Source: an uncultured virus (IMG/VR IMGVR_UViG_3300035682_000026) (lineage: Duplodnaviria; Heunggongvirae; Uroviricota; Caudoviricetes). Taken from it: a stretch of DNA of 64,000 nt. Within the stretch, counting starts at the first letter, position 1. Each line of letters opens with the position of its first letter. Position numbers and translations under genes: made by a program. Below are positions 2,053 to 56,387 of the stretch, in pieces. Where the stretch lies: the IMG/VR virus record IMGVR_UViG_3300035682_000026; one strand, given 5' to 3'. Below the pieces are notes generated by a model that was not told where the DNA came from, did no database searches, and was given only the letters and a program-made list of their open reading frames with translations.

Positions 2053-2117
2053 CAGAATGGCATGTTACGATTCAAAGTAAAAATTTGATGTTTGTTAACT
2101 TGCTGAAACCATTCTTT
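2053..2117 (-). ncRNA. CWGCAA-stem ncRNA, copy A
   Basis: AGAATGG-TTT-CAGCAA...CCATTCT-G; one of six covarying copies. Confidence 0.65.
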
Positions 2118-2120
2118 ATC

Positions 2121-2768
2121 TTATTTTCTTCCTTGAATCCAATCCTCGTTAAGGTAAGTTTCAAGGTCTTCTTTTTTTATTTTTTTATTAATACCTTCTT
2201 TGGTAATCCAACATGTGCCATACTGTGAATTTGTTTCACCAGTTCCAGTACCTTTAGATGATTCAGACATCAATTGTTTAGTTTCATCAGAATGTTTTTT
2301 ATTTTTAAAACTACCAGGATTATCCTTAAAATATTTTAACCTACTAGCGACAATTTTATCGATATGTGTTTTTTCTAGAGTAGAACCCCTTCTTAAATCA
2401 GATGCTTTTTTATTTCCTATTATAAGACCCCATATTCTTCCTTCTTTAAACTTATTAAAATGTTCTTCATTAATAAAACCACCTTGACCACCTTCTTTAA
2501 GATTAATACATTTACCATCTGATATCAATTCTTTATTAACGATTTCAATCTCTCTAATAACCAATGCTTCTCTGCTTGGTAGATACTCAAGTATTTCTTT
2601 AGTATGATTATCTTTACCATATTTTCTTATTGAATACCTCAATATTGTCCCACTTCCCATATAACCATCTTCTATGTTACTTGTACTATGCATTCCTACA
2701 TACCATTTTCCTGTTACATTACATGTTGTTTTATATATGTAATGTATTGTTTTTTCTTTTCTTGCCAT
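2121..2768 (-). CDS. GIY-YIG (Seg-like) homing endonuclease with NUMOD3
   Basis: YIYKTT...WYVGMH...YMGSG; KHSDETKQLMS; paralog of 38188..38808. Confidence 0.9.
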   Translation of the reverse strand: MARKEKTIHYIYKTTCNVTGKWYVGMHSTSNIEDGYMGSGTILRYSIRKYGKDNHTKEILEYLPSREALVIREIEIVNKELISDGKCINLKEGGQGGFINEEHFNKFKEGRIWGLIIGNKKASDLRRGSTLEKTHIDKIVASRLKYFKDNPGSFKNKKHSDETKQLMSESSKGTGTGETNSQYGTCWITKEGINKKIKKEDLETYLNEDWIQGRK

Positions 2769-2817
2769 TGTCGTATATCTTTTATTATAAATATACAACA
2801 AAGTACAAAAAAGTCAA

Positions 2818-2892
2818 TGGTTGGAATACTAGGATTCGAACCTAGACGGACTGGCTCAAAACCAGTAATGCTAACCGTTACATTATATTCCA
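2818..2892 (-). tRNA. tRNA-Gln(TTG)
   Basis: Loop TT-TTG-AG, U1-A72, encoded CCA. Confidence 0.92.
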
Positions 2893-2895
2893 AAA

Positions 2896-2953
2896 TTTCT
2901 AATTCTACGCAGACGCTTAAACACCTGGGCCCCTATGAATTAGTAACAGTCTC
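2896..2953 (-). ncRNA. inter-tRNA structured motif, copy 1
   Basis: GAGACTGTTA-CTAATTC-ATAG...GCGTA-GAATTAG-AAA; repeated at 15059..15109. Confidence 0.55.
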
Positions 2954-2959
2954 TTCACG

Positions 2960-3032
2960 AGCAGAAGACGAGGCTCGAACTCGCAACCCCCAGCTTGGAA
3001 GGCTAGTGCTCTACCAATTGAGCTACTTCTGC
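2960..3032 (-). tRNA. tRNA-Gly(TCC)
   Basis: Canonical cloverleaf, loop CT-TCC-AA. Confidence 0.95.
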
Positions 3033-3099
3033 ATTATTTTTTGTTCATTATTTATGAGTGTTCATTGTACTTGAACATGTACCTTTCACTGAACACTTG

Positions 3100-3174
3100 T
3101 GCATCCATTGGGGCTCGAACCCAAACAGCCCATATTAAAAGTATGGTGCCTTATTCCATTTTGGCTATAGATGC
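3100..3174 (-). tRNA. tRNA-Lys(TTT)
   Basis: Stem CCATA/TATGG, loop CT-TTT-AA. Confidence 0.92.
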
Positions 3175-3191
3175 AATTAATTGTATTCTAG

Positions 3192-3263
3192 TAGCCCCAA
3201 CGGGAATCGAACCCATTTTCCTCCGTTAAAAGCGGAGTACATCGCCAGCAATGTTTTGAAGCC
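3192..3263 (-). tRNA. tRNA-Lys(TTT), second divergent copy
   Basis: Stem CTCCG/CGGAG, loop CT-TTT-AA. Confidence 0.85.
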
Positions 3264-3358
3264 ATAGTTATTACTATCCCTTCAACGCATCGAAGGCGGT
3301 TAGTGTTTACTCTTTATGTTCTTTATCTTTTTCATAATTTTTATTTTATTCTATTTTG

Positions 3359-3449
3359 TCTAAATGACGAGACTCGAACTCGCATTGAGCGTTTTAACAC
3401 TACTTCTCCATTCCAAGTGGAGTCGGCTTCCAATTGCCTTCACATCTAG
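3359..3449 (-). tRNA. tRNA-Pro(TGG) with long variable region
   Basis: C1-G72, A73, stem CTCCA/TGGAG, loop CT-TGG-AA, ~22-nt variable region. Confidence 0.85.
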
Positions 3450-3464
3450 TTTATTTTGTTGCAT

Positions 3465-3498
3465 AAAAAAACCCAGTTTAGATTTCTCTAACTGGGTT
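3465..3498 (-). terminator. attenuator terminator of tRNA operon 1
   Basis: AACCCAGTT-AGAGAAATCTA-AACTGGGTT followed by U tract. Confidence 0.9.
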
Positions 3499-3522
3499 AA
3501 TAAATAATACTTGCGTATTGTT

Positions 3523-3624
3523 TTACTTTATCATGTTTGACTTCATGACATACCCAGTTGTGCCTTGAGGCGTTCCGCCTTTAGGTTGATACTGTTTCGT
3601 TTGATATGTTTTTGTTGTCATCAT
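3523..3624 (-). CDS. leader peptide 1 MMTTKTYQTKQYQPKGGTPQGTTGYVMKSNMIK
   Basis: Between promoter and terminator; residues 3-25 all T/K/Y/Q/P/G. Confidence 0.85.
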   Translation of the reverse strand: MMTTKTYQTKQYQPKGGTPQGTTGYVMKSNMIK

Positions 3625-3659
3625 TGTTTCTAATTGTTGTGGGTTTTCCCCGTTTGTTT

Positions 3660-3701
3660 AATAAATATATGCAAATATACGAATGTTTTTCATTTAATCA
3701 A
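3660..3701 (-). promoter_or_regulatory. Bacteroidota-type promoter (TTG...TATATTTG) plus TATTTAT motif, tRNA operon 1
   Basis: Matches TAnnTTTG -7 consensus; near-identical to the operon 2 promoter. Confidence 0.8.
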
Positions 3702-3765
3702 GTTTTTTTTTAACTTTTTTTAATAAAAAATCATTTTATTATTTAAATCCTTGATATTAAAGGGT

Positions 3766-4209
3766 TTAACTGTTTAATTTTTTTAGTCTTCTTTTTTCTT
3801 TTGCCGCAGCTTTTTTGATTTTATCTCTTAATTCAGCTGCTAACTCATAATTTTCAACTTGTACAGCGTTTTCTAATTGTTCTTCTAAAGGTAGTTCTGC
3901 TTCAGGTGGTCCAAGCGGTTCATCACTAACTAATGTTTTAATTATTACACCTAATGGTTTATACCACATACGTTTTTCAAAATACATTTCACCATCACTT
4001 GAATATTCAATATCATCTGGTTCCCCTAATTGAGTATCAAGTTCTTCATCAAGTTTATTTAATTCATCACCTGTATAATTACCATCAGGGTTAATGTGTT
4101 TAAAACTATCAATCATATCAATGATTTTTTTAGCTTCTTTATTAATAAAATCATCTTCTTTTTTCTTTTCACCAAAGAATTTATTAAAAAGGTCATCAAA
4201 GCTTGCCAT
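3766..4209 (-). CDS. UvrB/UvrC-motif protein
   Basis: C-terminal LENAVQVENYELAAELRDKI. Confidence 0.75.
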   Translation of the reverse strand: MASFDDLFNKFFGEKKKEDDFINKEAKKIIDMIDSFKHINPDGNYTGDELNKLDEELDTQLGEPDDIEYSSDGEMYFEKRMWYKPLGVIIKTLVSDEPLGPPEAELPLEEQLENAVQVENYELAAELRDKIKKAAAKEKRRLKKLNS

Positions 4210-4210
4210 A

Positions 4211-4657
4211 TTATTTTTGTTTTAATTTACGTTTTATGTGATTATGTGTTTTAACTGAATGATATTTAAATGCAAGTATAGGATTTATATTGTAGAAATA
4301 CATAAATAAAGCAAAGAAAAATCCTGCTAACATATACATAATACTAATTGTCATCCAATAATCTTTGGTTATAGAATTAATCCAATATACTACTAAGTCA
4401 TAACCCAAAGGATTTAAAAACAAAGCTATTGTTATTAAAATATTACCTAAAGTTTTTTTATTTAATTTAAATGAGAGAAACGATAATATAAACGATAGGA
4501 ATGCAAATCCATAAAGTACGAACATTGTATGCCAATAATCTTTGGTTAATTCTGTCAGTTTGTAAACCAATATGTCGAAACCCATGGGGTTCAGGAATGT
4601 CGCTGTCATTAGGCAAACTGTCCCTAAGACTTTCCTGTTTATCGCTTTTACTATCAC
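4211..4657 (-). CDS. membrane protein with internal duplication
   Basis: Two FLNPxGxDxxVY...TKDYW repeats, hydrophobic helices. Confidence 0.7.
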   Translation of the reverse strand: MIVKAINRKVLGTVCLMTATFLNPMGFDILVYKLTELTKDYWHTMFVLYGFAFLSFILSFLSFKLNKKTLGNILITIALFLNPLGYDLVVYWINSITKDYWMTISIMYMLAGFFFALFMYFYNINPILAFKYHSVKTHNHIKRKLKQK

Positions 4658-4793
4658 TATCCATATGTTTGTGTTTAGTTTTCATTATTTAACTTATTAG
4701 TTAAATAAATCTTATTTTCTAGAATAACCGCTAAAAATAAATCTAGTGGTTATTAATAAATATATACTTATTTTAAAATAAATCAAGTAATTC

Positions 4794-5615
4794 TTATGAT
4801 TTAAGGAGTAATTCTTTTATATCAGAAACTAATCTTCTATGACCATCACCATAAAGTTGCCAAGCTAACCCCATTGCTTTTAAATCATAATGTTTCAATA
4901 TTGTTGAATAATTAGTTTCTCCTTCTGGAAATCCAACTACATAAATACTATCAGCCAATTCAGCCGCTAAACGAATATCGTGTGTGGAGAATATAATCGT
5001 ATTTAATTCATTAGCAGCACTAATTTTATCAAATGATTGTTTTACTTTTTCAATATTCCCAACATCTAACCCAGAGAATGGTTCATCTAATATCATAAAG
5101 TGTTTAGATGTAAGCATTTGCTCAATGATTGCTGTTCTTTGTCTTTGACCACCAGACAACTCACACGAGTATTTATCTTTGTGTTCCATCAACCCCCAAT
5201 CAGTTAAATACTCATTAATTATAGTATCTTTTTCAGCTTTTGTAAGTGTTGATTTTCTCAAAGCATACTCACATATCTGCGTAATGGTTTTGTGTCTAAA
5301 AAGGGTGTATTTTTGGTCTACAAACCCCATATCACCTTTATCTAATGGTTTAGCATCATTCTCATCTTCTGTAGTTAAATCAGTAATAAGGACTTGACCT
5401 TGTGTTGGTTTAAGCAAACCAGTAAGTCCTTTGAAAAGAGTTGATTTCCCTCTACCAGAACGACCAATGAACGCAATAACTTGTCCAGTTGATTGGTGGC
5501 CTTCTCTAACAATATCTTTAATATCAAAATTGATATTTTTAAGAATTGATTTCCCATCGTAACCTAAGCTAACATCATTGATGTACAATAGGGTTTTTGT
5601 TTCTTTATAACTCAT
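4794..5615 (-). CDS. ABC transporter ATPase (NitT/TauT-like)
   Basis: GRSGRGKST, LSGGQ, ILDEP, H-loop. Confidence 0.95.
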   Translation of the reverse strand: MSYKETKTLLYINDVSLGYDGKSILKNINFDIKDIVREGHQSTGQVIAFIGRSGRGKSTLFKGLTGLLKPTQGQVLITDLTTEDENDAKPLDKGDMGFVDQKYTLFRHKTITQICEYALRKSTLTKAEKDTIINEYLTDWGLMEHKDKYSCELSGGQRQRTAIIEQMLTSKHFMILDEPFSGLDVGNIEKVKQSFDKISAANELNTIIFSTHDIRLAAELADSIYVVGFPEGETNYSTILKHYDLKAMGLAWQLYGDGHRRLVSDIKELLLKS

Positions 5616-5625
5616 AATTTTATAT

Positions 5626-5982
5626 TTAATAACTTATTGTTCCTAATCTGTCAAAACTCGTAGCACCTTTGGTTTTATTACATATCATTAAGATTTTTTT
5701 GGTTTCGTAGTGTTTTATGTAATTTTCATCAAAATCAACGCCACTATATTCATCAATAAGTGACCAATTATCAAAACCAATATCATGTAATTCATATAAG
5801 GGTTTTTCATCTCTCTGTTGTCTTAAATTTAAACTTTCTAACAATGCTGTTCTTTTCATTCGCATTAGTTGAGTTTCTATAATTTCAAAATCAACAAAAT
5901 CAATAGCTGCTGGATGAAACATTTTAACCTCAGCATTATCTGGAAGTTTATCCAATAACTCTTTTAGTTTTTTAACTTTCAT
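5626..5982 (-). CDS. hypothetical protein
   Basis: 118 aa ORF with its own TATCTTTG promoter. Confidence 0.65.
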   Translation of the reverse strand: MKVKKLKELLDKLPDNAEVKMFHPAAIDFVDFEIIETQLMRMKRTALLESLNLRQQRDEKPLYELHDIGFDNWSLIDEYSGVDFDENYIKHYETKKILMICNKTKGATSFDRLGTISY

Positions 5983-6112
5983 AATTTTATTTTTTATTAG
6001 ACCACAAAGATACGTTTATTTTCTAAAACACCAAATTAATTTATAGTTTTATTTTAAAATACTTGACTTTTTATAATATTTCTATATATTTATATGTATA
6101 CACAACGTAAAG

Positions 6113-6277
6113 ATGAAAAAAGAAATTAAACACAACAAATTAATGAATGTTAGAATGTCAGAAAGTCTAATAAAAGAATATAAAAATCATTGTGAAAATA
6201 ATGGTTTAGTTATATCAACAAGAATAAGGTTCCTTATCCAAAAAGATATTGAAGGTAAAATTAAAATAGAAAAATAA
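6113..6277 (+). CDS. small ribbon-helix-helix-like protein (54 aa)
   Basis: MKKEIKHNKLMNVRMSESLIKEYKNHCENNGLVISTRIRFLI; TAATG overlap with the HNH gene. Confidence 0.7.
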   Translation: MKKEIKHNKLMNVRMSESLIKEYKNHCENNGLVISTRIRFLIQKDIEGKIKIEK

Positions 6278-6909
6278 TGGAAAACAAGTGCTGTAGAGAA
6301 TGTGGTTTATCTAAACCATTATGTGATTTTAGTTTATGTACCAAAAATAAAGATGGTTACAATAACTTTTGTAAATCATGCCGTAACGCTAAAGATAAAC
6401 TTTATCGAGACCAAAATAAAGAAAAAATATCTAATCGTTTAAAAGAATATAATGCTAAAGAAAATGTAAAGAAAATGCGTAGTGAATATGCAAGAAAGTT
6501 TAGACAAGAAAACCTTTTAGAAATGAGAAAAAAAGCATTAGAAAAACAAAAACTATTAAGAGAGACTGACCCATTTTTTAGATTCAAACAAAGCGTTAGA
6601 AATAGGATTAACAATTCACTAAAACATAATGGTATTAGAAAAAATTCAAAAACTGCTATAATACTTGGTTGTTCTTTCCAAGATTTTAGGGATTATTTAG
6701 AATCTAAATTTGAATCGTGGATGAATTGGGATAACAGAGGGTTATATAATGGAACACCAGAATATGGTTGGGATATTGACCATATGATACCTTCATGTTC
6801 AGCTAAAACGGAAGAAGAATTAATTCAACTTAATCATTATTCCAATCTTCAACCTTTATGTAGTTACATTAATCGTGATATAAAAAGAAATAACCCTATA
6901 AAAATATAG
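6277..6909 (+). CDS. HNH-family endonuclease
   Basis: WDIDHMIP...NHYSNLQPL; paralog of 24509..25051. Confidence 0.85.
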   Translation: MENKCCRECGLSKPLCDFSLCTKNKDGYNNFCKSCRNAKDKLYRDQNKEKISNRLKEYNAKENVKKMRSEYARKFRQENLLEMRKKALEKQKLLRETDPFFRFKQSVRNRINNSLKHNGIRKNSKTAIILGCSFQDFRDYLESKFESWMNWDNRGLYNGTPEYGWDIDHMIPSCSAKTEEELIQLNHYSNLQPLCSYINRDIKRNNPIKI

Positions 6910-6919
6910 GGTTATTTTA

Positions 6920-7696
6920 TTAAAAATTAGAAAATCTAAATACAAGTTTTCGCAATCTAGTAAGTAAGAAATCTAAACAAACTCCAATTATAATTATAAT
7001 TGCTTGTATAGCAATAACTCTTCCGTTACTTCCAAGTCTATCACCATTTTTAATTAGTACACCTAAACCACCAGCGGCAACTAATATAGACTCTATCGTC
7101 ACCAACATAACCCATACAATTGCTAGATTTTGTCTAACCAATTCTATTACATAATCTAACCTACCTTTGATTACGACTTCCCATAAGGTTTCCCAATGAT
7201 TACACCCAAGTGTTTTAGCATGTTCAAATTCTTCATTTGGTATATCCTTAATCATTTGAATAAGACTGGTGATAAGAAATGTAGACATAAAGATAACAAG
7301 TACCCAAACTTGAATTTGTCTCGCATCTGAAATCATTATTGTAATGTAAAATGCTATTCCAGTTGGTGGTAAGTATCTTAATTTAGATAAGAATGTTCCT
7401 AATGATTTAGAGAAAGCAATTGTTGTTAAGTAAGCAAATATCATTGAGATAATCACTGAAAAGAATATTGCTTGGAAACACAATGATAGTGAACTAGCTA
7501 ACTGTGTAATAAGACCCTCTGACCATACATCACCTAAACCTTTAAATACTTGTGCAGGTGTTGGGAATAAATGTGTTGTTCCTATTGAACTGGACACAAA
7601 CCAAAATGTAATCAATAAAGCTAACCATACTGTTACAATGATTGTTTTTGAAGAACTTTTAAGTTCTTGAAACGGAGTAAAAAACTTTTTTATCAT
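6920..7696 (-). CDS. ABC transporter permease
   Basis: Multiple TM helices, EAA-like EHAKTLG. Confidence 0.9.
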   Translation of the reverse strand: MIKKFFTPFQELKSSSKTIIVTVWLALLITFWFVSSSIGTTHLFPTPAQVFKGLGDVWSEGLITQLASSLSLCFQAIFFSVIISMIFAYLTTIAFSKSLGTFLSKLRYLPPTGIAFYITIMISDARQIQVWVLVIFMSTFLITSLIQMIKDIPNEEFEHAKTLGCNHWETLWEVVIKGRLDYVIELVRQNLAIVWVMLVTIESILVAAGGLGVLIKNGDRLGSNGRVIAIQAIIIIIGVCLDFLLTRLRKLVFRFSNF

Positions 7697-11801: not shown

Positions 11802-11923
11802 TTGATAAGGCAGGCTTCGAACCTGCATTAATATCCAACAGTTTGTCCTCGATTTGAGGATGAGGTTTAGGATAGTCCCTTCGTTTAACTCACCATTGCG
11901 TCTACCAGTTTCGCCACTTATCA
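11802..11923 (-). ncRNA. tRNA-like RNA with ~70-nt insert replacing anticodon and variable arms
   Basis: Acceptor TGATAAG/CTTATCA, Leu-type D arm, GCAGG-TTCGAAG-CCTGC. Confidence 0.7.
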
Positions 11924-12141
11924 CATGGATATACATCCGTTATTGATTTTGATATCGTTAACACCACGTCCATTCGTGGATTTTGGGGCCGATGGTTAAC
12001 CATCGACTTCCACCACCTTATTTTGTATAGAACAAGGAAACTTTATGTTAGAACAGCGGCTCAAGGGAATAGATACTACCTAGGTTCTAGAAACCGTTCA
12101 CCCATCAAATGGATTACATGAGCTTGTTCTGTATGTGATAA

Positions 12142-12272
12142 CAAGATTAACTTTTTTCTTTTTCGTGCTCTAACCATTAAGCTAACCGCCCAGTAATATC
12201 GGACAGTATGGGACTCGAACCCATACCACGAGCTTAATAGGCTATAGATTTTTTGTTGCTGAAATAATCTTT
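12142..12272 (-). ncRNA. CWGCAA-stem ncRNA copy B containing a circularly permuted tRNA-like domain (YrlA-like)
   Basis: T-arm, loop-closed acceptor stem, then D-arm, inside AAGATTA/TAATCTT stem. Confidence 0.8.
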
Positions 12273-12551: not shown

Positions 12552-12776
12552 TTTAATGGATAAACATTTCCAAGTGTCTATCCTTAGCAGTTTTTATATC
12601 TAGCATTGGCTGAAAACTACAAAACCAGTTCAATTTTTACTCTTGGAAGAGGGATAGTTGAACTCCAACCCAGTTGATATGGTACAACTATTAAACCCCG
12701 AACTTGAGTTGTCGGCAACTCTACGTAATCCTAACATTAAACTTCCTAGGTTTTAATGAAATTCTTACACACATTG

Positions 12777-12853
12777 TGGAGAAAGCAAGAATCGAACTTG
12801 CGACCTACGGACCCAATAAAGTGACCACATTCTGCCAACTGATATATTTCCCC
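12777..12853 (-). ncRNA. tRNA-like RNA with irregular anticodon arm
   Basis: Acceptor GGGGAAA/TTTCTCC and T arm good; anticodon arm poorly paired. Confidence 0.6.
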
Positions 12854-20509: not shown

Positions 20510-20836
20510 ATGGGCTACGTTTACCTCTTATTACAAACCGACATTGATGGAAATTGTTCCCACAAAATAGGTATAACTAAAAACGACCCAAACCTTCGTT
20601 TAAAGCAATTGCAAACAGGTAATCCTAATAAAATAAGTCTTCTTAAACAATACTATTCAAAAAACTATCTAAAAGTAGAACAATGGATGCACCGAAAACA
20701 TTCTGGCTCCAAATCTGAAGCCAAGAATGAGTGGCGTATACTTACCGATGAGAATGTGTTCTCATTTATTGATGATTGTAAAGAAGCTGATGAAACCATC
20801 AAATTCCTACTTGAAAATAATTCTCTTTATAAATAA
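20510..20836 (+). CDS. GIY-YIG nuclease (T5orf172/MUG113-like)
   Basis: YVYLL...KIGIT...RLKQLQTGNP...EW. Confidence 0.85.
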   Translation: MGYVYLLLQTDIDGNCSHKIGITKNDPNLRLKQLQTGNPNKISLLKQYYSKNYLKVEQWMHRKHSGSKSEAKNEWRILTDENVFSFIDDCKEADETIKFLLENNSLYK

Positions 20837-22011
20837 AATTCTTTACGAATCCTTACCAATAAATCATTAACCAAATTCTTATCAACACTATTTGGTAAGT
20901 CTGAATCTTCAAATACTGAATCCATATTTGCAATCGCAGCATCTGCAGTTTCAATTAGAGTTTCCAAATCAACTTCACCACGTCTAATTTTAAGAAGTTC
21001 TGCAGCATCTTGTCGTCTGACTTGTATACCTTCTCCACGACCAATTTCAGTAGCCATATTAATAAGTCTAATACAATGCATCATATTCTTTCCATCGATA
21101 CGTTGACCATGTTCTTGTGTTTCAACATAACGAGCTTCATTACGGTTCTCTAACCATTCTTGATACTCTCTATAATCTTTACAATGCTCTGAGTAACCAT
21201 CTTTGTTATAGATTAGGTTACAGATAGCTTTCTCACCTTTAGGAATGCTAGAAAGTCTTAATTGATTTGAAATACCATAATTAATCTTACCATCTTCATC
21301 TTCATGACCAGTATTAATAAGTCCCTTATATCCGAAGCCCATTGATTTACCAGCATCTTTTCGAATTTCTTTTGAAGCTGTTCGTTTAGCTTCAGTATGT
21401 CTATCTGAATGTAATAACTCACTTACTTTATCATAAAATAAAGCATATACATCTCTAGCATTTGATAAATTAACAGCACCAATGTATTTTTCTTCAAACC
21501 TACCATCATTCCATTTTTTCCATGGAATGGTTTTTTCTCCATCAATAACATAACAGAAATCCAATAGGTCTTTACGAACTACTTTATCTTTCTCCCAATT
21601 TTGTTTTTTATTAAGACCCTTAGCTTTTTTAATTTGTTGTCTAGCATAACCCCCAAAACTATCCTTACATACTTTGGTAATAAACTTTTCCTTTTGTTCA
21701 AGGATAAGGTCAAACAATGGATGTTTGCTAATTATACAATCTTCTGGACTATTAAGAAGTTCTAGTACTGTTGGGTTGTTAGAACCCATAAGTTCTAGGA
21801 AACGTCTAATCTCCCATCCAGTATAATCCTTATTTACATTGATTTGTTCCACGTAACCAGTACCTAGAATGTTTTCCAGAGGTAGGATATAAACAAATTT
21901 TTTGTCTACATCACTTTCAGGTGTCTGTGTTCCATATGCTTGAGAACCAATAATGGTTTCAAATAAGATAAGACCGTTATCTACAAGATACTCATGTGTT
22001 ATCTGTTTCAT
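20827..22011 (-). CDS. nucleotidyltransferase (Pol-beta superfamily, phage type)
   Basis: GSQAYGTQTPESDVD, NNPTVLELL, KNMMHCIRL. Confidence 0.85.
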   Translation of the reverse strand: MKQITHEYLVDNGLILFETIIGSQAYGTQTPESDVDKKFVYILPLENILGTGYVEQINVNKDYTGWEIRRFLELMGSNNPTVLELLNSPEDCIISKHPLFDLILEQKEKFITKVCKDSFGGYARQQIKKAKGLNKKQNWEKDKVVRKDLLDFCYVIDGEKTIPWKKWNDGRFEEKYIGAVNLSNARDVYALFYDKVSELLHSDRHTEAKRTASKEIRKDAGKSMGFGYKGLINTGHEDEDGKINYGISNQLRLSSIPKGEKAICNLIYNKDGYSEHCKDYREYQEWLENRNEARYVETQEHGQRIDGKNMMHCIRLINMATEIGRGEGIQVRRQDAAELLKIRRGEVDLETLIETADAAIANMDSVFEDSDLPNSVDKNLVNDLLVRIRKEFYL

Positions 22012-26383: not shown

Positions 26384-26587
26384 CTACCAACTATCGTAGT
26401 CGGTTATGTCTTTTTCTATTGTATTATCACCCCATTTTATTATAACTTTTACGTTACAACCAATACCTGTATGGGTGAAACAATATGTTATTTTTGCACT
26501 TAGATTATCACCATACACAATGTTAATCGCTTGTATCAATTTGTCTAATGTCTTTTGTTCTACTTCGTTTAATTCAAATGATGCCAT
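26384..26587 (-). CDS. hypothetical protein
   Basis: 67 aa, TAATG-coupled to the PARP gene. Confidence 0.65.
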   Translation of the reverse strand: MASFELNEVEQKTLDKLIQAINIVYGDNLSAKITYCFTHTGIGCNVKVIIKWGDNTIEKDITDYDSW

Positions 26588-27879
26588 TAGTTTCCAATTT
26601 CAATTAAATGCGATACAGTACATTGTGCTGCGTTATAAACGATGTATTCATTGTTTCTTAAATCAGCACCACCTTTGGCAAATACTGAATCGTAATCGTC
26701 TTTTTTCAATACTTTATCAGATAATGAATAACAACTAGATGTGTGGTTAAGGATTTCTTTTTGATTTCCTAAATGAACATCAAACAACGCTAAATATGCT
26801 TTATCATCACCACCTTTGGTCCAATAAGAACCTCTCAACGATGAATAACCGATAGATTTCTGTGCTTTATCAGCAAAGTAGATACCATCACCAAACATAC
26901 TACCAGTATGAACAGCACCAGAAGGTCTAATCAATAAACCAGTTTGTAAGATGTTAAACCAGTTCTCATTACGGGAACCATGCCAGTAAAGTCTTCTTTT
27001 CTTAACCTTAGCTTGTTCAAAGTGAGTGTCAAATACTTTTTGTGTTTTGGTATTAACAACCTTAAAGACTTGTTTAACTTGGTGAGCGTTAGGGCCCATA
27101 AGCTTAGTGACAAGAGCAAGTGTTTCAGTATCTTCTTCAACATCAACTCTAAGACCCATTTGGTCAAGGATTGTAATTTGGTCAACTTGTTCTTCTTCTG
27201 GAGCGTCAGCAGCGGCTTTTTGTTGTTTAATCAATTGAACCTGACCTGCCATCGTATCTAATGTAGATTGTTCTTGTCCAATGAATTTTTGTGCTTTTTC
27301 TAAGGAATTAACATCGTTTACATCATTGATAAGATAATCACGTACATTATCCATTCTTCTAGGGATAATGGTATATAATTTAAGTAACAAGTCATTGATG
27401 TCTTTCTTATCAACATTCAAGACCAATTTAAAACTAATAGTATCAATTAATTCCTGAGCAGCATTTACTTGTTGTTCAGATACAGCTTCTTGAGTAACCT
27501 TATAGTTTCTTTGGATTGCTTTGTTTGCAAAGCTCATTAATTGGTCGATAAGTCTTTTAACCACAGAGTTTTTAATCTCTTCAGTTTTAGCAGTAGCTGT
27601 TGAACCACTGGTAGCATCAATTACTGGTTCAGCTAAGAATTCAGTAACATCAGTATAACCTTTTGTTTTAGATAGTTTCTGTTTAAGAACACTATCCCAT
27701 TTGCTTGAAGGTTTAATCTCAGTAGTTAAACTACGTCCAACTCTACCGTATTCACATTTGATAGTACCATCGGAAAGTTCTTCCATGATATAAACTTTGT
27801 TACTATTATCAGTCATTCCGTTATCAACAGAAACATGAATTAATTTGGCGTATCTTAAACCGTTTTCTTTAATTATCAT
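26587..27879 (-). CDS. PARP-like ADP-ribosyltransferase (WGR, regulatory and catalytic domains)
   Basis: YGRVG; LYTIIP; WHGS, GSMFGDGIYFA, NEYIVY (H-Y-E triad). Confidence 0.9.
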   Translation of the reverse strand: MIIKENGLRYAKLIHVSVDNGMTDNSNKVYIMEELSDGTIKCEYGRVGRSLTTEIKPSSKWDSVLKQKLSKTKGYTDVTEFLAEPVIDATSGSTATAKTEEIKNSVVKRLIDQLMSFANKAIQRNYKVTQEAVSEQQVNAAQELIDTISFKLVLNVDKKDINDLLLKLYTIIPRRMDNVRDYLINDVNDVNSLEKAQKFIGQEQSTLDTMAGQVQLIKQQKAAADAPEEEQVDQITILDQMGLRVDVEEDTETLALVTKLMGPNAHQVKQVFKVVNTKTQKVFDTHFEQAKVKKRRLYWHGSRNENWFNILQTGLLIRPSGAVHTGSMFGDGIYFADKAQKSIGYSSLRGSYWTKGGDDKAYLALFDVHLGNQKEILNHTSSCYSLSDKVLKKDDYDSVFAKGGADLRNNEYIVYNAAQCTVSHLIEIGN

Positions 27880-35576: not shown

Positions 35577-36143
35577 TTATTTAATATTAATTATAGAAGG
35601 ATTATAAACTATTATATGTTTTATATCTTCATAGTCTTTATTTACTATAATACCATCAATACCCAACGATACACAATTTCTAACAAATTCAACTGGATTA
35701 TACCTATAAAAATCAATCCATACTTGGAGAATACAATCTTTTTCATTATCATTATATTCCATAGAATCTTCAATAAATGTTTGAATACCTCTTATTGGGT
35801 CTTCACCCCAATTTTGTGCCGAACCTTCCCAATCATCAGCCATCATAGCTAATTTTTTCATAAAAGGTCTTATTTTAACTTTGTTTATAGGAACCTCATC
35901 AAATAAAATATTAGGTTTTAAAATTACACTATAAACGTTTTCACCATAACGATTTGCCTCTTCTTCTGATGTTGTAAAATAAATACCAGGACCTTCTCTA
36001 TCAAATGCTTCTTGACCACCAACAAAATCATCAATAAATTTATTTATCTTGGTTGGGCTACCATGAAAGACATGATATTCTCCACCAGCAATTGCTTCTG
36101 GTAATAATGATTCTCTAAGTTGTTGTCTAATTAATTTTTTCAT
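35577..36143 (-). CDS. ADP-ribosyltransferase-like protein with MKKLIRQQLRESL N-terminus
   Basis: VFHGS...GPGIYFT...DGII...IVYNP. Confidence 0.6.
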   Translation of the reverse strand: MKKLIRQQLRESLLPEAIAGGEYHVFHGSPTKINKFIDDFVGGQEAFDREGPGIYFTTSEEEANRYGENVYSVILKPNILFDEVPINKVKIRPFMKKLAMMADDWEGSAQNWGEDPIRGIQTFIEDSMEYNDNEKDCILQVWIDFYRYNPVEFVRNCVSLGIDGIIVNKDYEDIKHIIVYNPSIINIK

Positions 36144-48102: not shown

Positions 48103-48164
48103 CAGAATAGCATTTTTTGGTTTATTTTACAGATAAATATTTTTAATTGCTGTAACCATTCTTT
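48103..48164 (-). ncRNA. CWGCAA-stem ncRNA, copy C
   Basis: AGAATGG-TTA-CAGCAA...CTATTCT-G. Confidence 0.65.
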
Positions 48165-48249: not shown

Positions 48250-48321
48250 ACTACTATAAAGGACTCGAACCTTTTACCCTCACCCCCAGTGGATGCCGCA
48301 CTTCCCTCATGCTTATAGTAA
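48250..48321 (-). ncRNA. tRNA-like RNA with non-canonical anticodon arm
   Basis: Acceptor TTACTAT/ATAGTAG, AAAGG-TTCGAGT-CCTTT; CATCC-ACTGG-GGGTG. Confidence 0.6.
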
Positions 48322-48331: not shown

Positions 48332-48384
48332 CAGAATCACTTTTTTCCATATAAAGTGTTGTTTGATTGCTGAACTGATTCTTT
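48332..48384 (-). ncRNA. CWGCAA-stem ncRNA, copy D
   Basis: AGAATCA-GTT-CAGCAA...TGATTCT-G. Confidence 0.65.
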
Positions 48385-48469
48385 TGTCAATTTAATTTGG
48401 GACTGTCCAGACTTACAACTCTGCCTTTTGGCTGTCCAAGTTAAATGTCCTGTCCCATAAAATTTATCT

Positions 48470-48707
48470 CAAGATGGTTATTTGTATTTTTCATCCCAGC
48501 GGATTAACCCATTTTACGTCTTCGGCTTTGCTTTGGCGAGAGTTTACTATTATTCAACTACATCCTACTTGCACCTTTTGGGGTGGTTGACGGTTTTCTT
48601 TTGAATGGAGAAATTACCATTTTTTCTAATCATGGGAAGATAAAATATCTTCCATACCAAATTAGCCTCTTAAGTTTGTCTGTTTTTTTGTTGCAGAACC
48701 CATCTTT
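48470..48707 (-). ncRNA. CWGCAA-stem ncRNA, copy E (long)
   Basis: AAGATGG-GTT-CTGCAA...~210 nt...CCATCTT-G. Confidence 0.6.
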
Positions 48708-48808
48708 TTAGATATTTTTATTATGTGTATGAACGTGTGTTTATTAATTATATGCAAATATACTAAATAATATATGATATAACAAGTTTTTTTGTAACTA
48801 TTTTTATA

Positions 48809-51282: not shown

Positions 51283-52323
51283 CTAATTTTCTGTTGTAGC
51301 AACATTTTTTTCAAGTTTTTCTTTTAAATCTATTAATAATGATTTGGCATCATCATCTAAATCTTTTGGTATCTCCACATTTAATGTAATAACTACATCA
51401 CCTCTTTGGTCTTGACCATAAAATTTCATACCTTTCTTTTGTATTCTCAAATTAGAACCAACATCGCTATATTCTGGTATAGAAACTCTAATTTTACCAC
51501 CATCAATTGTTTCTATTTCTACTTTACCACCTAGAACAAGCAAAGGATAATTTACTTTCAAATTAAGTTTTAAATCATTACCACTTCTTTCATATGTTTT
51601 ATGTAATAATTCTTGAACGTTAATAAGTAAATCACCACACTTACCACTTTTTATCGCATGACCTTTTCCTTTCATGATAAATGTCATACCTTGTTGAACA
51701 CCAGATGGAATATCAACATCAATTTTTTCTTCTATTGTTTTTGTTCCACTTCCACTACATTTACCACATTGAACTTTATATTTAGTACCAAGACCAGAAC
51801 AAGTTGGACATGGCATTGATTGTTGCATCATTCCTATTGGGGTTTGCAATACCCTGGTAATAACACCTGACCCATTACATGAACCACAATTATCAATATC
51901 AGTACCACCATGACCACCGCAAGAATCACAACTATCATGTCTAGAATATTTATAAGTTTTTTTAACACCTGTATAAATTTCTTCTAGCGTTAATCTAATG
52001 TTTAAACTCATATTATAACCAAAACGTTCAGGTGATTGTTGGAATCCATTAAAATCAAAACCACCAAATGGATTTCTTTGTTGGTTTTGTTGACCCTCAT
52101 GACCAAATTGGTCATATTTTTGTTTCTTATCATTATCAGATAAAACTTCATATGCTTCATTAACTTCTTTGAATGCATTTTCATCACCCCCTTTATCTGG
52201 GTGATGAATTTTACATAATTTTTTATAATTACTTTTTAATTTAGATTTAAATTCATCCTTTGATAAATTTTTATCATTTTTTGATAATTCTAATAATTCG
52301 TAATAATCTTTTTTATTTGACAT
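51283..52323 (-). CDS. dnaJ: DnaJ chaperone
   Basis: HPD J domain, four CxxCxGxG repeats, C-terminal domain. Confidence 0.95.
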   Translation of the reverse strand: MSNKKDYYELLELSKNDKNLSKDEFKSKLKSNYKKLCKIHHPDKGGDENAFKEVNEAYEVLSDNDKKQKYDQFGHEGQQNQQRNPFGGFDFNGFQQSPERFGYNMSLNIRLTLEEIYTGVKKTYKYSRHDSCDSCGGHGGTDIDNCGSCNGSGVITRVLQTPIGMMQQSMPCPTCSGLGTKYKVQCGKCSGSGTKTIEEKIDVDIPSGVQQGMTFIMKGKGHAIKSGKCGDLLINVQELLHKTYERSGNDLKLNLKVNYPLLVLGGKVEIETIDGGKIRVSIPEYSDVGSNLRIQKKGMKFYGQDQRGDVVITLNVEIPKDLDDDAKSLLIDLKEKLEKNVATTEN

Positions 52324-52549
52324 TTTTATTTATTTTAATATTATTAATCATTTCTATTTCATCAGTATAAACAATGTCAAAATACCCACCATTAATACAT
52401 TCTATTTTATCAGTATAATAAAACATTTTTACATTATTATAAATGTATAGAAACCTATAAAAAGACTATATTACTATAGTTTATTTCATTCTAATGTATT
52501 TATTTTTTTGCAAATATACGTATACTTATTCATATAAACAAATAATTAA

Positions 52550-53206
52550 ATGACATATCGAGTAGTTTTATTAGCAAACGGTAAATATAAGAAGACTTTA
52601 CATAGGAGTAAGACTAGTGAAACAGCTTATCTTAACTTTCATTCATTGAAAGAAAATAATAACGTCATGTTCCCTAGAAAATTTATCAATTCTAATGGTT
52701 TAAAACCAGTTAAGTATCAAATATGTGTTACAAAAATAACTGAAGAAGGTGATACTTTCCGTACCCTTAGAGATGGATATGGTAAATTATATACTGAAGA
52801 ACCCCTAGGTGATTGGACAATCCTTGCTTCAGCTGATTATAATGTAGAAGAAACCTTCTGGATACATGGATTAGAAAATAATAAAGATAGACCTACCATA
52901 TCAGAAGTTGTTAAAAGACTTATGATAGGTGCTCATGGTAAAAAAATGGTTAAACAAATCATTGTTGTGTATAATAAACTAATAATATACAACGAGGACC
53001 AATTTGATATGATTATTTGTAAGAAATTAGAAGATGCTCAACGATTACACCATACACTAGCTAAAATTGCAAAGAAACAAAAGATTAAGAGTCTATTGTT
53101 TATGGGTACTGCTAGTCCAGCAAATATTGGTAGATATTATGATGTTATTCACGAAAATACTGGCTGGCCATATACTAAAATAAGACGTACTAGTACAAGA
53201 CCATAA
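52550..53206 (+). CDS. hypothetical protein
   Basis: 218 aa ORF followed by bidirectional terminator. Confidence 0.75.
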   Translation: MTYRVVLLANGKYKKTLHRSKTSETAYLNFHSLKENNNVMFPRKFINSNGLKPVKYQICVTKITEEGDTFRTLRDGYGKLYTEEPLGDWTILASADYNVEETFWIHGLENNKDRPTISEVVKRLMIGAHGKKMVKQIIVVYNKLIIYNEDQFDMIICKKLEDAQRLHHTLAKIAKKQKIKSLLFMGTASPANIGRYYDVIHENTGWPYTKIRRTSTRP

Positions 53207-53237
53207 TAAAAAACCCACAGTAATTGTGGGTTTTTTA

Positions 53238-53912
53238 TTAGAAATTTAAAATCATATTACCAATTATTATTGTTACTTTACATGTTACCATTTCATCTAT
53301 ATCCATATCTAAAGGACCAAAATCCATTGATTCGAAGTAACATTCAGAAAAAAGCCATTGTTCAATAACAACACCAGTTGGGTCAAGCAAATCAATTGAA
53401 AAATCAAATGGTTCTCCTGGTCTTTCACGTAAAATAATCGCTAGTCTTTGTGCTACTGATGGACCAATAGGGTCAGCAAAAACCAAAACCATTGGGTCAT
53501 ATCGAATTTCACATCCATCAGGACCATTTCTTAAAATATATGTTGATGGTCGACATGCTTTTCTAACCACCCATTGCTGTATTTCAAATTCTGGTGGCAT
53601 ATTTACCAAAAATCTGTTTTGTCTTTTTGGTTCATAAGGAACATACCCAAAATTAGCCCTATTTACAGGTTGATGTATTGGTGATGGTTTAACCCATTTA
53701 ATTTCATCAGAAACTGATTTTTCTAATCCATTTGTTTCAACCCATTCTTTAACGGTGTTCACACATACCTCTTCCGAAAGGCTAAATATTTTGACCATAT
53801 TTGTGACTATCCTATCACCAGTCACGATATTACCTTCACCATTAATACAGTTATTATTAATAATTCTATAATATCTATCAAGATAACTAACAACCATTTG
53901 AATTTCTTCCAT
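53238..53912 (-). CDS. protein with T4 gp19-like tail-tube domain
   Basis: YEPKRQNRF...DPIGPSVAQ...LDPTGVVIEQW...DFGPLD. Confidence 0.7.
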   Translation of the reverse strand: MEEIQMVVSYLDRYYRIINNNCINGEGNIVTGDRIVTNMVKIFSLSEEVCVNTVKEWVETNGLEKSVSDEIKWVKPSPIHQPVNRANFGYVPYEPKRQNRFLVNMPPEFEIQQWVVRKACRPSTYILRNGPDGCEIRYDPMVLVFADPIGPSVAQRLAIILRERPGEPFDFSIDLLDPTGVVIEQWLFSECYFESMDFGPLDMDIDEMVTCKVTIIIGNMILNF

Positions 53913-54100
53913 TAACTAAATAAACTTTCAAGTCTTTTTACTAGATAGCTAATTTTTTCATTGTTTCTATCTAGTATTAATTGTTGTTCAGGTGGGATAT
54001 TACCAGCATATTCTGATTTTATCTTGGAATTTACTCTCTGTAAGTGGTCGCTTTCTCTAAGACATTCATCATAGATTACTGCTTTGTTTTCTTGTTCCAT
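53912..54100 (-). CDS. hypothetical protein
   Basis: 62 aa, TAATG-coupled. Confidence 0.6.
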   Translation of the reverse strand: MEQENKAVIYDECLRESDHLQRVNSKIKSEYAGNIPPEQQLILDRNNEKISYLVKRLESLFS

Positions 54101-54103
54101 ATT

Positions 54104-54448
54104 TTATTGGTTACATTTGCAATTTCCACCACATTCACATGGGTTATCATCAGGTGTTATTTCTTCATCTAGGACATCCATTTCCGCAGCTATTGAAAAC
54201 TGTTCTTTAATGTCCGCTATCATTTGTGTTACTTTTGCCATATCAGGCTCTGCCATAACTACAGGGTTAATACATTCGATTCTTTCTTCACCACGTGTTG
54301 GTAAAAAGAAAGCAACTGCGTTAGCATCTTTCTGTGTTATCACATCATTAACCATATCAACAAATGGTTGTGCAATTTCTCTATTGCTTAATAATTCTAT
54401 ATCTAAATAGAATACGAGTACTAATGGGTGTTGTTTTTCTTCTGCCAT
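54104..54448 (-). CDS. hypothetical protein
   Basis: 114 aa, C-terminal CECGGNCKC. Confidence 0.65.
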   Translation of the reverse strand: MAEEKQHPLVLVFYLDIELLSNREIAQPFVDMVNDVITQKDANAVAFFLPTRGEERIECINPVVMAEPDMAKVTQMIADIKEQFSIAAEMDVLDEEITPDDNPCECGGNCKCNQ

Positions 54449-54451
54449 TTT

Positions 54452-54694
54452 TTAATTGTTTATTAATTCCTCAAAGGTAACTTCTTTGATTATGTCTTCT
54501 AGAGCGATTTCTAGGTCAAAATTATCAACGATAAGTTCATTTACTCTCATGTCTTTAGATTCTTTACCAAGTTCGCTGTAACACGCTAATTTAACGTCAT
54601 TTTCCATTAAGTAAACTAAATATTCACTAACAAGTCTATTTTTATGTATTTTGCTGTGTAATTGGTCTACTTCTTTAATAAGTATTGATTTCAT
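54452..54694 (-). CDS. hypothetical protein
   Basis: 80 aa ORF. Confidence 0.6.
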   Translation of the reverse strand: MKSILIKEVDQLHSKIHKNRLVSEYLVYLMENDVKLACYSELGKESKDMRVNELIVDNFDLEIALEDIIKEVTFEELINN

Positions 54695-54797
54695 AGGTTT
54701 TTTATTTTTATATTCAAATTTACTGAAAATAAAAATATGTGTAAATACTAAAAACGAAAAAAACCCACATTTCTGTGAGTTTCTTTTTTCTTTGTTC

Positions 54798-54933
54798 CAA
54801 GATAGGGGGGCATTTTTTTCTTCTAACCCTGTTAAGAAGCTTTCCCATTAAATAAAATTGTTAGAGGATTGGGTACCTACGGATTTCAAGTTTAGTTAAA
54901 TTTTTTGTGTGTTTGGTTGCAGCACTTATCTTT
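54798..54933 (-). ncRNA. CWGCAA-stem ncRNA, copy F
   Basis: AAGATAA-GTG-CTGCAA...CTATCTT-G; starts ~15 nt after the DUF2828 stop. Confidence 0.65.
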
Positions 54934-54947
54934 TATGAACAAATATA

Positions 54948-56387
54948 TTATACTGTAATCGCAGAGTAACGCTCTGAATCAATTACATTCATCATCATTG
55001 AGTATGGACTCATATCTTTTCCACCCAATAGATTTGATAATAGTGATGGCGAAAATCCACTAACGAGGCAAGTCCCATTTTTATCAAATTGAACTGGTTT
55101 GTTAGAGTCGTTTCTAGAATGGATATTCCAGTAAACAATTTTTGGCATCACATAACCTGCTTCAGCATACAATTTTTCAAAAGTTTCTTGTGCAGTAGAG
55201 TCCCAATTTCCTCTAGTACCAGCATTGAATTCCATATCCGAAAGGATAAGAATCATTGTTGGCATTTCACTTTCTTGAACATTGCTATCAATAGCTTTTT
55301 TCAAAATTAAATTAAATACAGCTTCAACATTAGTTGACATATCCCATGCAGCGTTTTCTAATTGACTGTATCTTTCAGAAAGAGAACCTTTAAGGATTTG
55401 TAATTCTGGTCTGTTTGAGAAAGTAATAAACGCATCTTGAAACATACCTATATTTCTTTCAGATATGTATAATCCCAATGAGATTGCTACATCCATACAT
55501 GTTACACTTTGGCTGTTACCAGCAGAGCATGACATAGACCCAGAAACGTCAACAACTGGAAGGAATCTTTCATTGTTAGACTCCAAGAAGTTTGGCAATG
55601 CGTTCCATTGAGCGTTAGCACCTTTCACATTGTCTTGTTTAAGGTTTTTGATAACATCATATGGGTACAAAGCACCAGCATTGATTTTAGCTTCACCTTT
55701 TTCAACACTTGTTAAGTATTCTTGAAAACGAGCCAAGTCGTTTTTAGAAAAGGCTTTCATCAAATCACTCATTGCTTTTGAAGGCAATTTAGAGTATTCT
55801 ATTTTAGTCCATTCTCTAGCACACATCAATTGCTCAACAGTGTTAGAGTTTTCAACAAGTAACTTACGGTACTCTTTTGGAGATAACCCTAAGTGTTTTC
55901 TAAGTGTATTAGCTTGTCTTTTAGCATCACGGCTAGCAACGTTTGGACGTGGCATCCATTTGCATGCTAACCCATTTTTAGCGTTTAACGCTTCAGTGAT
56001 TATAGTTAATGCTTGATTCTCCAATGGAGTACCAAATAACACTAACATATCATCCCATCTACCAAATTCTGAAATAAGGTGTAGGTTTTTACCTAATACT
56101 TCTGTACGGTTCTCAGCCAAGTAAGAGATTATATCTTTAAATATTTGTCTTTCACCAGCACCACCACGTACATCTCTGGCCCAAAATAATAAACGCATAG
56201 CAGTCAATGGATTTTCTCCAAATGCTTTCGTAAATACATTAATTAGACGAGTTTTGTCAGCACCTCTCATTGCACCAATCTGGAAGAATAAATCTACACA
56301 GTGGTTTAATGATGACGAGTTAGTAACCATACCGTTTTCAGTAAGTGAATTTTTAGTTTGCATTGCAGATAATAATGAATTTCCCAT
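54948..56387 (-). CDS. DUF2828-family protein (TROVE/Ro60-like helical region plus vWA domain)
   Basis: TENG, RDVRGGAGER, GRWDD, KWMPR, VDVSGSM (MIDAS), SDMEF, YWN, VSGFS. Confidence 0.85.
   Translation of the reverse strand: MGNSLLSAMQTKNSLTENGMVTNSSSLNHCVDLFFQIGAMRGADKTRLINVFTKAFGENPLTAMRLLFWARDVRGGAGERQIFKDIISYLAENRTEVLGKNLHLISEFGRWDDMLVLFGTPLENQALTIITEALNAKNGLACKWMPRPNVASRDAKRQANTLRKHLGLSPKEYRKLLVENSNTVEQLMCAREWTKIEYSKLPSKAMSDLMKAFSKNDLARFQEYLTSVEKGEAKINAGALYPYDVIKNLKQDNVKGANAQWNALPNFLESNNERFLPVVDVSGSMSCSAGNSQSVTCMDVAISLGLYISERNIGMFQDAFITFSNRPELQILKGSLSERYSQLENAAWDMSTNVEAVFNLILKKAIDSNVQESEMPTMILILSDMEFNAGTRGNWDSTAQETFEKLYAEAGYVMPKIVYWNIHSRNDSNKPVQFDKNGTCLVSGFSPSLLSNLLGGKDMSPYSMMMNVIDSERYSAITV

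Follow-up and report, generated by a model that had tools for sequence, protein, structure and literature searches.

Within its first 64 kb, a viral contig of 71 kb (IMG/VR IMGVR_UViG_3300035682_000026; those first 64,000 nucleotides, with a G+C content of 30%, are called the window below) carries six short intergenic elements, all on the minus strand, and a gene for a protein with DUF2828 and DUF7788 domains. We consider it probable (about 0.7) that the elements are small stable RNAs held through a shared terminal module by the DUF2828 protein, a predicted Ro60-type ring, which together would form a second Ro60-Y RNA system with an RNA handle of its own. The argument for binding is one of analogy: Ro60 binds the terminal stem of Y RNA, and Y RNA tethers Ro60 to other enzymes (PMC12135203, PMC4201824; these and the other papers cited were accessible in part, and what is said of them applies to those parts), which makes the module the likely binding handle and the variable segment that it encloses, the “cargo,” the likely effector. 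The module runs in the order A, 7-bp terminal stem, 3 nt, C(A/T)GCAA, variable cargo, 3' stem strand and G, and the features that matter here are as follows.

2053..2115, minus strand: element 1, 63 nt, found in the strict pattern scan; between a NUMOD3 endonuclease-like open reading frame (ORF) and tRNA-Tyr, its end 5 nt before the latter
12142..12271, minus strand: element 2, 130 nt, found in the strict scan; tRNA-mimic cargo; its start (12271) ~205 nt after tRNA-Phe
12163..12231, minus strand: YrlA-type permuted tRNA-like domain in element 2 (T arm, loop-closed acceptor-like stem, D arm)
48103..48162, minus strand: element 3, 60 nt; between tRNA-Met, 6 nt past which it starts, and a terminator-like hairpin (48096-48069)
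48332..48382, minus strand: element 4, 51 nt, found in the strict scan; minimal form
48470..48706, minus strand: element 5, 237 nt; long cargo whose 3' block is strongly conserved
54798..54932, minus strand: element 6, 135 nt, with a 6-bp stem; followed by a terminator-like hairpin (54786-54757)
54806..54880, minus strand: two predicted H-type pseudoknots in tandem in the cargo of element 6, with co-changing loop-downstream pairings
54948..56387, minus strand: DUF2828 + DUF7788 gene, 479 amino acids (Pfam E 9e-38 for DUF2828 and 5e-48 for DUF7788)

An earlier reading of the window from its letters (the original prediction) had described six minus-strand elements with a shared module, and the strict scan recovered five of them on the minus strand and none on the plus strand, with the same stems (AGAATGG/CCATTCT, AAGATTA/TAATCTT, AGAATGG/CTATTCT, AGAATCA/TGATTCT, AAGATGG/CCATCTT). 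The 7-bp stem then proposed holds for those five; element 6 lies in the same register, and its innermost pair is an A-C mismatch (AAGATAA/CTATCTT) that leaves 6 pairs. Lengths given as ~53-238 nt measure 51-237 nt from stem start to G. One copy had been placed ~15 nt after the DUF2828 stop codon (54948), and 15 nt is indeed the distance for element 6; the others had been placed in tRNA transcripts, and adjacency to tRNA genes holds at 2115-2053 (tRNA-Tyr), 48162 (tRNA-Met) and 12271 (tRNA-Phe). No Rfam family reached its gathering score on the elements, a check proposed at the outset: at that threshold the window gave tRNA and tmRNA only, and 12 related loci gave tRNA and one unrelated DUF3268 RNA only.

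Taken alone, the window is suggestive, not decisive; it is the related loci that make the case decisive. The strict pattern occurs 5 times; 200 dinucleotide shuffles contain it 1.61 times on average, and 6 of them reach 5. A variant with an A-R-R start, chosen after the hits had been seen, gives 7 matches against 0.46 (0/200 shuffles), the seventh of which (10544-10198, inside an ORF) is probably due to chance. Since the strict pattern stands only mildly above the shuffles, the weight of the argument has to come from other genomes.

Close viral relatives have the elements at the same sites, with the letters of the stem changed and the pairing kept. We then scanned 86 more distant DUF2828 loci, 6 from cultured phages and 80 from GTDB genomes (the best 80 of 326 stretches, some of which may be phage DNA within metagenome-assembled genomes, MAGs), and 76 of the 86 had a same-strand element, with 226 same-strand hits vs 22 on the opposite strand, mostly in arrays within ~1 kb of the gene. 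In bacteria, many of the arrays sit immediately 5' of the gene on its own strand; in many phages the copies lie 3' of it. Pair counts from one alignment (A2; 100% paired, 250 two-sided changes) were dropped as circular, its rows having been chosen for pairing, and we therefore rely on two other tests. When every CAGCAA within 1.3 kb of a DUF2828 gene was taken without selection on pairing, 158/257 sense sites closed a perfect 7-bp stem followed by G vs 0/64 antisense sites, and six control hexamers in the sense direction did so at 1/287 sites. In a scan of viral contigs with the 5' half only (at least 124 loci, 105 distinct matches), the 3' partner was present in 72 of the 105 matches listed vs 68 of 2053 random placements. 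Among the matches listed in loci of at least 6 kb, DUF2828 was in the locus for 26/52 with the stem. Likewise among the matches listed, 24 stem-positive loci had no DUF2828 within 6 kb; of the 23 viral records examined for them, 15 carried the gene elsewhere, as did 8 of the 10 that were at least 90% complete.

A covariance model built from 88 short copies gave the same picture inside one bacterial family: of 151 genomes, 8 carry DUF2828 and 8 match the RNA model, with 7 shared (one of them a training genome), and in all 7 the match adjoins the gene. The eighth DUF2828-bearing genome has two weaker elements 5' of the gene, and the sole match in a genome lacking the gene lies 600 nt from a contig end. 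The model matched 0/12 canonical TROVE Ro60 genomes and found nothing in T5. Negatives from this model are soft because it misses long elements: those starting at 48706 and 54932 in the window escape it, and in Vibrio phage D491s it finds none, where the pattern scan finds copies of 238 and 192 nt. The co-occurrence of motif and DUF2828 genes that had been predicted is thus borne out at the 86 loci, in the bacterial family and in viral contigs, and the linkage is kept amid differing other neighbours in phages whose hosts are unrelated, in bacteria, in an archaeal MAG and in giant viruses. We also saw, in a Chloroflexota genome (L059:2800-7730), DUF2828 and three elements in a large, phage-like tRNA array.

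Giant viruses came into the survey through a motif-first locus in a giant-virus MAG, where DUF2828 stands beside XRN and Nudix genes. Within the giant-virus-type DUF2828 clade (50 of 80 loci examined, with an RNA model trained without them), 22 matches of up to 40 bits fell in 12/50 loci, 10 of these loci at E 0.032 or better, and 6 of those 10 carry a GVMAG label. All the matches are on the strand opposite the gene and divergent from it, often in tandem arrays.

The protein is the other half of the argument. Its only Pfam families are PF11443 and PF25043; TROVE (PF05731) gives no Pfam match, and a phmmer search up to E 10 finds no solved Ro60 chain. An AlphaFold model (predicted local distance difference test score, pLDDT, 81.8, from a 32-sequence alignment) retrieved Ro60 in all of the top 10 places of a structure search (Z 14.2-17.8, 379-412 residues aligned, 11-14% identity), the best other fold scoring Z 10.7. 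The comparison with Ro60 suggested in the original prediction thus gave a match of the predicted model along its whole length, and by this model the protein is a helical repeat ring closed by a vWA domain. The MIDAS motif (for metal ion-dependent adhesion site) of a vWA domain is DxSxS...T...D; here a MIDAS-like DVSGS...T...D is present, with D280, S282, S284, T352 and D384 invariant in 32 homologues. Homologues occur in 711/50,697 phage records as well as in GTDB genomes, giant-virus MAGs, fungi and plants; among the long ones, the 120 listed of 151 are from fungi or plants or are without a name. In one record (G170:C1:49627-52040) the gene is in two pieces ~900 nt apart, perhaps through an intron or insertion.

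As to the RNA, a set of 180 copies selected with no condition on the base 3' of the stem has G there in 98%, has A directly 5' of the stem in 76% and has CAGCAA as the motif in 97%. Of 26 single mismatches in the stem, read on the sense strand, 14 are G-U and 4 are A-C; that G-U is the commonest points to RNA. Over all elements the median length is 81 nt (quartile 59; range 40-280 nt), with up to 8 copies per genome. Just past the DUF2828 stop codon in loci L005, L014 and L023-L030, CGGCAA stands in place of CAGCAA, in some with a lengthened or interrupted terminal stem.

The cargos are of several kinds: none or AU-rich (50-65 nt), YrlA-order tRNA mimics, D-anticodon-T mimics, predicted tandem pseudoknots and, in the 237-nt copy, a long conserved segment. 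On element 2 the Rfam YrlA model scores 25.5 bits (E 0.0077), aligned on the tRNA-like part and not on the Rsr-binding stem, and in all 6 of 6 loci picked for such cargos, LeBron among them, it scores 35-47 bits (best 47.1); clostridial arrays carry tRNA mimics in the D-anticodon-T order. By pattern, a T-loop is present in 43/222 copies of up to 200 nt. The predicted pseudoknots of element 6 have their counterparts in related loci, where one pairing changes in step as CCCA/TGGG, TGCCAA/TTGGCA, GTCAA/TTGAC and TACAC/GTGTA and the other as AGGG/CCCT, AGGT/ACCT, AGAT/ATCT and GGTTTT/AAAACC. These pairings were read by script and by eye, without a formal covariation statistic, and an unconstrained pseudoknot search returned mostly other pairings; RNAalifold found no consensus structure for the cargo of the 237-nt element. 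At the site of that element two relatives (L002:17576-17781 and L041:10232-10437) keep the terminal module around an unrelated cargo, which suggests cargo exchange. The original prediction had called the cargo interchangeable: the cargos do differ, YrlA-type tRNA mimics included, and interchange is a reading of that variety. Two further observations come from other loci. Near 6001-6090 in L150, L155, L156 and L196, an 85-nt element encloses a pyrimidine tract with CTACCTCCCTTT, which is anti-Shine-Dalgarno-like, and comparable tracts occur in L187, L188 and L208; in the tRNA cluster of L139 (2480-2531) there is a weak twister-P1 ribozyme match (34.7 bits, below the gathering score).

In four metatranscriptomes the contigs fall chiefly on the 237-nt element and the tmRNA, and none lies between 48796 and 49243. 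One of 242 nt (run X1) spans 48467-48708, coinciding with the 237-nt element; another, from a second study (run X3, 48467-48741), stops at the same 48467, and further contigs over element 5 run 48434-48703 and 48479-48697. They differ from the window by 3-5 bases and so come from near relatives. The contigs hint weakly that RNA libraries contain the 237-nt element as a separate fragment of matching length. The short elements and element 3 are without RNA contig cover, as expected at their size, and we count this neither way.

The system works like Ro60-Y RNA yet lies outside YrlA and, by sequence, outside TROVE. Compared with Ro60/Rsr and its Y RNAs (YrlA, RF02553; Yrn1; phiLo Ro60, PMC12135203), it is alike in the predicted ring-plus-vWA fold, in RNA genes that adjoin the protein gene, mostly on the same strand and several per genome, in a terminal stem that joins the 5' end to the 3' end and carries a short motif, and in tRNA-like domains of both orders (T-acceptor-D as in YrlA, D-anticodon-T as in Yrn1), the same two orientations that Chen et al. 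(2014; PMC4201824) describe. The protein, unlike TROVE Ro60, is DUF2828/DUF7788 with 11-14% identity, and where Y RNA has a long bulged stem with GNCGAA, there is here a short perfect 7-bp stem with an unpaired CWGCAA and a 3' G; unlike Y RNA, the cargos are also pseudoknots or absent, with up to 8 copies of 40-280 nt. A T-acceptor-D domain, the mark of YrlA, is present in some copies (element 2 and the 6/6 selected loci). The YrlA motif GNCGAAN0-1G, as described in the accessible part of PMC4201824, is absent from the element 2 alignment, the scores (25.5 in the window, 47.1 at best elsewhere) lie below the gathering score of 69, and in place of a TROVE Ro60 within 4 kb the neighbour is DUF2828, 43 kb from the tRNA-mimic copy of the window. 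Canonical Ro60 loci gave weak YrlA matches only, in 3/16 stretches, and in the genomes tested the two systems did not overlap.

Some probable phage relatives of the protein have already been called Ro-like. Bas63 gp130 is Ro60-like, lies upstream of a tRNA cluster and counters the Ppl defence (10.1101/2024.10.10.617714); from the gene order in a related phage it is presumably a DUF2828 homologue. Proteins of cluster L mycobacteriophages bear the SEA-PHAGES label “Ro-like RNA binding protein.” Like the protein described here, these are Ro60-like phage proteins by a tRNA cluster, with Y RNA partners guessed; unlike the present work, the accessible part of the preprint and the SEA-PHAGES label identify no RNA, whereas here an RNA class and its motif are defined; a Felix O1-like phage has 4 of the elements, and 3 adjoin LeBron gp53. 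The phage table of PMC4201824 (one supplement lay outside this check) does not list LeBron, JoeDirt, Faith1, Felix or KVP40. The ROT/TROVE platform (Iyer et al., 2021; PMC7824862) is alike in its setting (jumbo phage, RNA ligases, kinase, CCA-adding enzyme, many tRNAs and a Ro-like protein); unlike here, the parts accessible give a tRNA-like partner only by analogy with cells and name no phage RNA family. One lead, the Treponema TD-1/TD-2 motifs, was set aside: by description, the sole basis of comparison, they are multi-hairpin and of one species (PMC1950547, in the part accessible), with no tie to the module.

A second comparison is with the Class I RNA of Dictyostelium (RF01414), whose model scores 29.9 bits (E 0.0018) on element 3, 20.1 bits on element 4 and 27.3 bits on one giant-virus copy, all below the gathering score of 41.5. 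Class I RNA is ~60 nt long, with a short terminal stem, AAG and CUGU ends, an unpaired motif of 11 nt in which T, C, C, A and A are fixed, and a variable remainder (PMC7919456). The likeness covers the ~60-nt median, the AAG start and CUGU end, the many copies, the variable remainder, a short end-joining stem conserved in structure over sequence, and an unpaired motif ending in CAGCAA directly after the 5' strand; short copies here start AAAG and end CTG(T) or TTG(T), the ends being predicted. From the 11-nt motif (T3, C6, C9, A10, A11), C6, C9, A10 and A11 are present as CWGCAA and the T is variable. Unlike here, the Rfam consensus has a spacer between stem and CAGCAA one base longer, and the accessible part of the published account reports no tRNA-like cargo. 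Class I RNA also has a DUSE (Dictyostelium upstream sequence element) promoter ~60 nt upstream, a eukaryotic feature not expected in phage. The direct binder reported there is an RNA recognition motif (RRM) protein, Rnp1A (PMC7919456), and the preprint version names a pull-down partner, DDB_G0281243 (10.1101/2020.04.05.026054). Kjellin et al. (2021; PMC7919456) report Class I RNA as unique to dictyostelids; among bacteria, their search took in Myxococcus alone. As for DUF2828 in dictyostelids, there was no term match in the supplements of PMC4931340 and PMC7919456 (both in part), two Atlas searches gave viral-led clusters only, and no named dictyostelid protein is among the 120 long homologues listed of 151, none of which shows absence. 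It is plausible that the module and Class I RNA are homologous; the alternative is that a 6-base motif and a stem arose in both by convergence. Going further, DUF2828 might be a second, independent Ro60 lineage whose partner RNAs are one class from phages to eukaryotes, with Class I RNAs its eukaryotic members, partner RNAs still to be discovered in the plants and fungi that carry DUF2828, and the module a universal handle for swapped cargos; this is a speculation on which we would take slightly worse than even odds.

If the elements are RNAs bound by DUF2828, they would be cut out of tRNA-cluster transcripts and their ends would pair; the stem, the A-G closure and the unpaired CWGCAA would settle on the ring's outer helical surface in the way that Y RNA settles on Ro60 with its bulged stem, and the cargo would do the work of the ribonucleoprotein (RNP). 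tRNA-shaped cargos could serve as decoy or tether for enzymes that handle tRNA (anticodon nucleases of the host; phage Rnl1, Rnl2, kinase and CCA-adding enzyme), pseudoknot cargos might tether other partners, and the cargo-less forms of 50-65 nt might gate or stabilise the ring. The phage RNA-repair genes and the counter-defence phenotype of Bas63 gp130 make RNA repair and counter-defence the likely purpose in infection. We infer such processing and cargo roles by analogy. The Ro60-like RNP with its own motif, as first proposed, has held up in that the motif tracks DUF2828, was not seen in 12 TROVE Ro60 genomes and goes with a Ro60-like predicted fold, binding remaining the step that we infer; the original prediction had none of the Class I match, the tRNA-mimic and pseudoknot cargos or the occurrence beyond phages, in bacteria, an archaeal MAG and giant viruses.

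Several points weigh against this reading. A shared Ro60 fold does not show shared function, and 179 of 222 cargos are without a T-loop, so that a role as tRNA mimic covers a minority. The strict element is absent at 10/86 DUF2828 loci (several with short flanks), and in the giant-virus clade matches lie within 3 kb of the gene at just 10-12/50 loci. Among the matches listed in loci of 6 kb or more, 6/20 without the stem also have DUF2828 nearby, several of which look like imperfect true copies; records of such stem-negative matches, a control with the gene in 0/13 of those listed, fall far below the test records in length. In two near-complete phage records, G156 and G167, an element is present and neither DUF2828 nor DUF7788 was detected. 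Assembled contigs of near relatives show neither ends nor strand, and most individual elements fold no better than their shuffles (z -1.98 to +1.86), single-sequence folding energies being uninformative.

Some of these points lend themselves to other explanations. The two phages with elements and no gene would suit real RNAs with a different protein partner, such as a host RNA-binding protein, with DUF2828 merely co-inherited in RNA-repair islands; so would the fact that the sole direct binder reported for Class I RNA, in the accessible part of PMC7919456, is an RRM protein and that no named dictyostelid is among the 120 long homologues listed. We give this a small share of the probability: the linkage persists amid differing neighbours, in phages whose hosts are unrelated as well as in bacteria, an archaeal MAG and giant viruses, the presence or absence of elements tracks the gene inside one bacterial family, and DUF2828 has the predicted fold of a known terminal-stem RNA binder. 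The module might instead be a cis-acting RNA site and not a free RNA, either an operator for autoregulation of DUF2828 or a processing signal of tRNA precursors, as the many same-strand bacterial arrays directly 5' of the gene and the window copies adjoining tRNA genes and terminators would allow; this is unlikely, given that copies lie 3' of the gene in many phages and up to 52 kb off in the window, that giant-virus copies are divergent on the opposite strand, that the stem encloses entire tRNA-like domains and that the 242-nt contig matches the span of the 237-nt element.

Two further readings we regard as very improbable. Inverted 7-bp arms about variable spacers, in tandem arrays and mobile genomes, could mark a module that acts as DNA, a protein-binding or recombination repeat of a mobile island, but G-U outnumber A-C mismatches 14 to 4 on the sense strand, cargos bear tRNA T- and D-loop signatures and pseudoknots, and RNA contigs coincide with an element. 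Nor do the common fold and the YrlA-type cargo make these ordinary, merely diverged YrlA Y RNAs with an ordinary Ro60: the protein has no TROVE Pfam match, no sequence match to solved Ro60 and 11-14% identity, GNCGAA is missing, YrlA scores stay under the gathering score and canonical Ro60 genomes are without the module, so that as a matter of membership this is largely refuted already.

The setting in the window fits a jumbo phage piece, given its RNA ligases, kinase, CCA-adding enzyme, tRNAs and Gp23-like fragment. There are 26 tRNA-like genes and one tmRNA, and Pfam marks, besides the Gp23-like fragment, two RNA ligases (Rnl1 and Rnl2), a kinase-like ORF, a CCA-adding/poly(A) polymerase, RlaP, ClpP, DnaJ and homing endonucleases. 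TAnnTTTG sites, which we take to be the Bacteroidota -7 element, recur ahead of transcription units and suggest a Bacteroidota host; one stands at 56430, ahead of the DUF2828 gene, and another, just 3' of which a start would fit the 5' end of the X3 contig (48741), is the following.

48755..48762, minus strand: TAnnTTTG promoter-like site upstream of the unit with elements 5 and 4, tRNA-Met and element 3

Other observations in the window concern its tRNAs and neighbouring genes. The tRNA-like gene at 12776-12853 (minus strand; Rfam 32 bits, irregular anticodon arm) has by ARAGORN the anticodon TTA (stop); it may be a degenerate tRNA or act as an ochre suppressor. The 330 noncoding nt 3' of element 2 (11810-12140, minus strand) hold hairpins and a weak wcaG RNA match (18.5 bits), and near 11815-11915 there is a tRNA-like stretch with a long insert, called by neither ARAGORN nor Rfam. 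Another uncalled tRNA-like stretch, with a T-loop (GGTTCGAGTCC), lies between element 4 and tRNA-Met (48260-48312, minus strand). The phage tmRNA (49287-49662, minus strand) is covered by RNA contigs in 4/4 runs, its ARAGORN tag reading being doubtful. PARP-like and ART-PolyVal ADP-ribosyltransferase domains and an RlaP nucleotidyltransferase (26587-27879, 35577-36143 and 20827-22011, minus strand) lie amid the RNA-repair genes.

The Ro60-like fold of such phage proteins, with Y RNA partners guessed, had been noted before; in the literature covered (subscription papers and the large structured-RNA catalogues lie outside this scope) we found neither an account of this RNA class nor one that links it to Class I RNA. 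What is gained is the definition of a widespread RNA class that has no Rfam family, and with it a likely RNA partner for a protein family found in 711 phage records, among them Felix O1-like, KVP40-like, Listeria, Campylobacter and Staphylococcus phages and cluster L mycobacteriophages. One likely member of that family already has a counter-defence phenotype, the mechanism of which becomes testable in E. coli K-12, and the long-open question of the nature of Class I RNA and of its binder gets a direct test. If Class I RNAs share the handle, they would not have been invented by dictyostelids in connection with multicellularity, and a Y-RNA-like system may also exist in plants and fungi, both of which have DUF2828 proteins.

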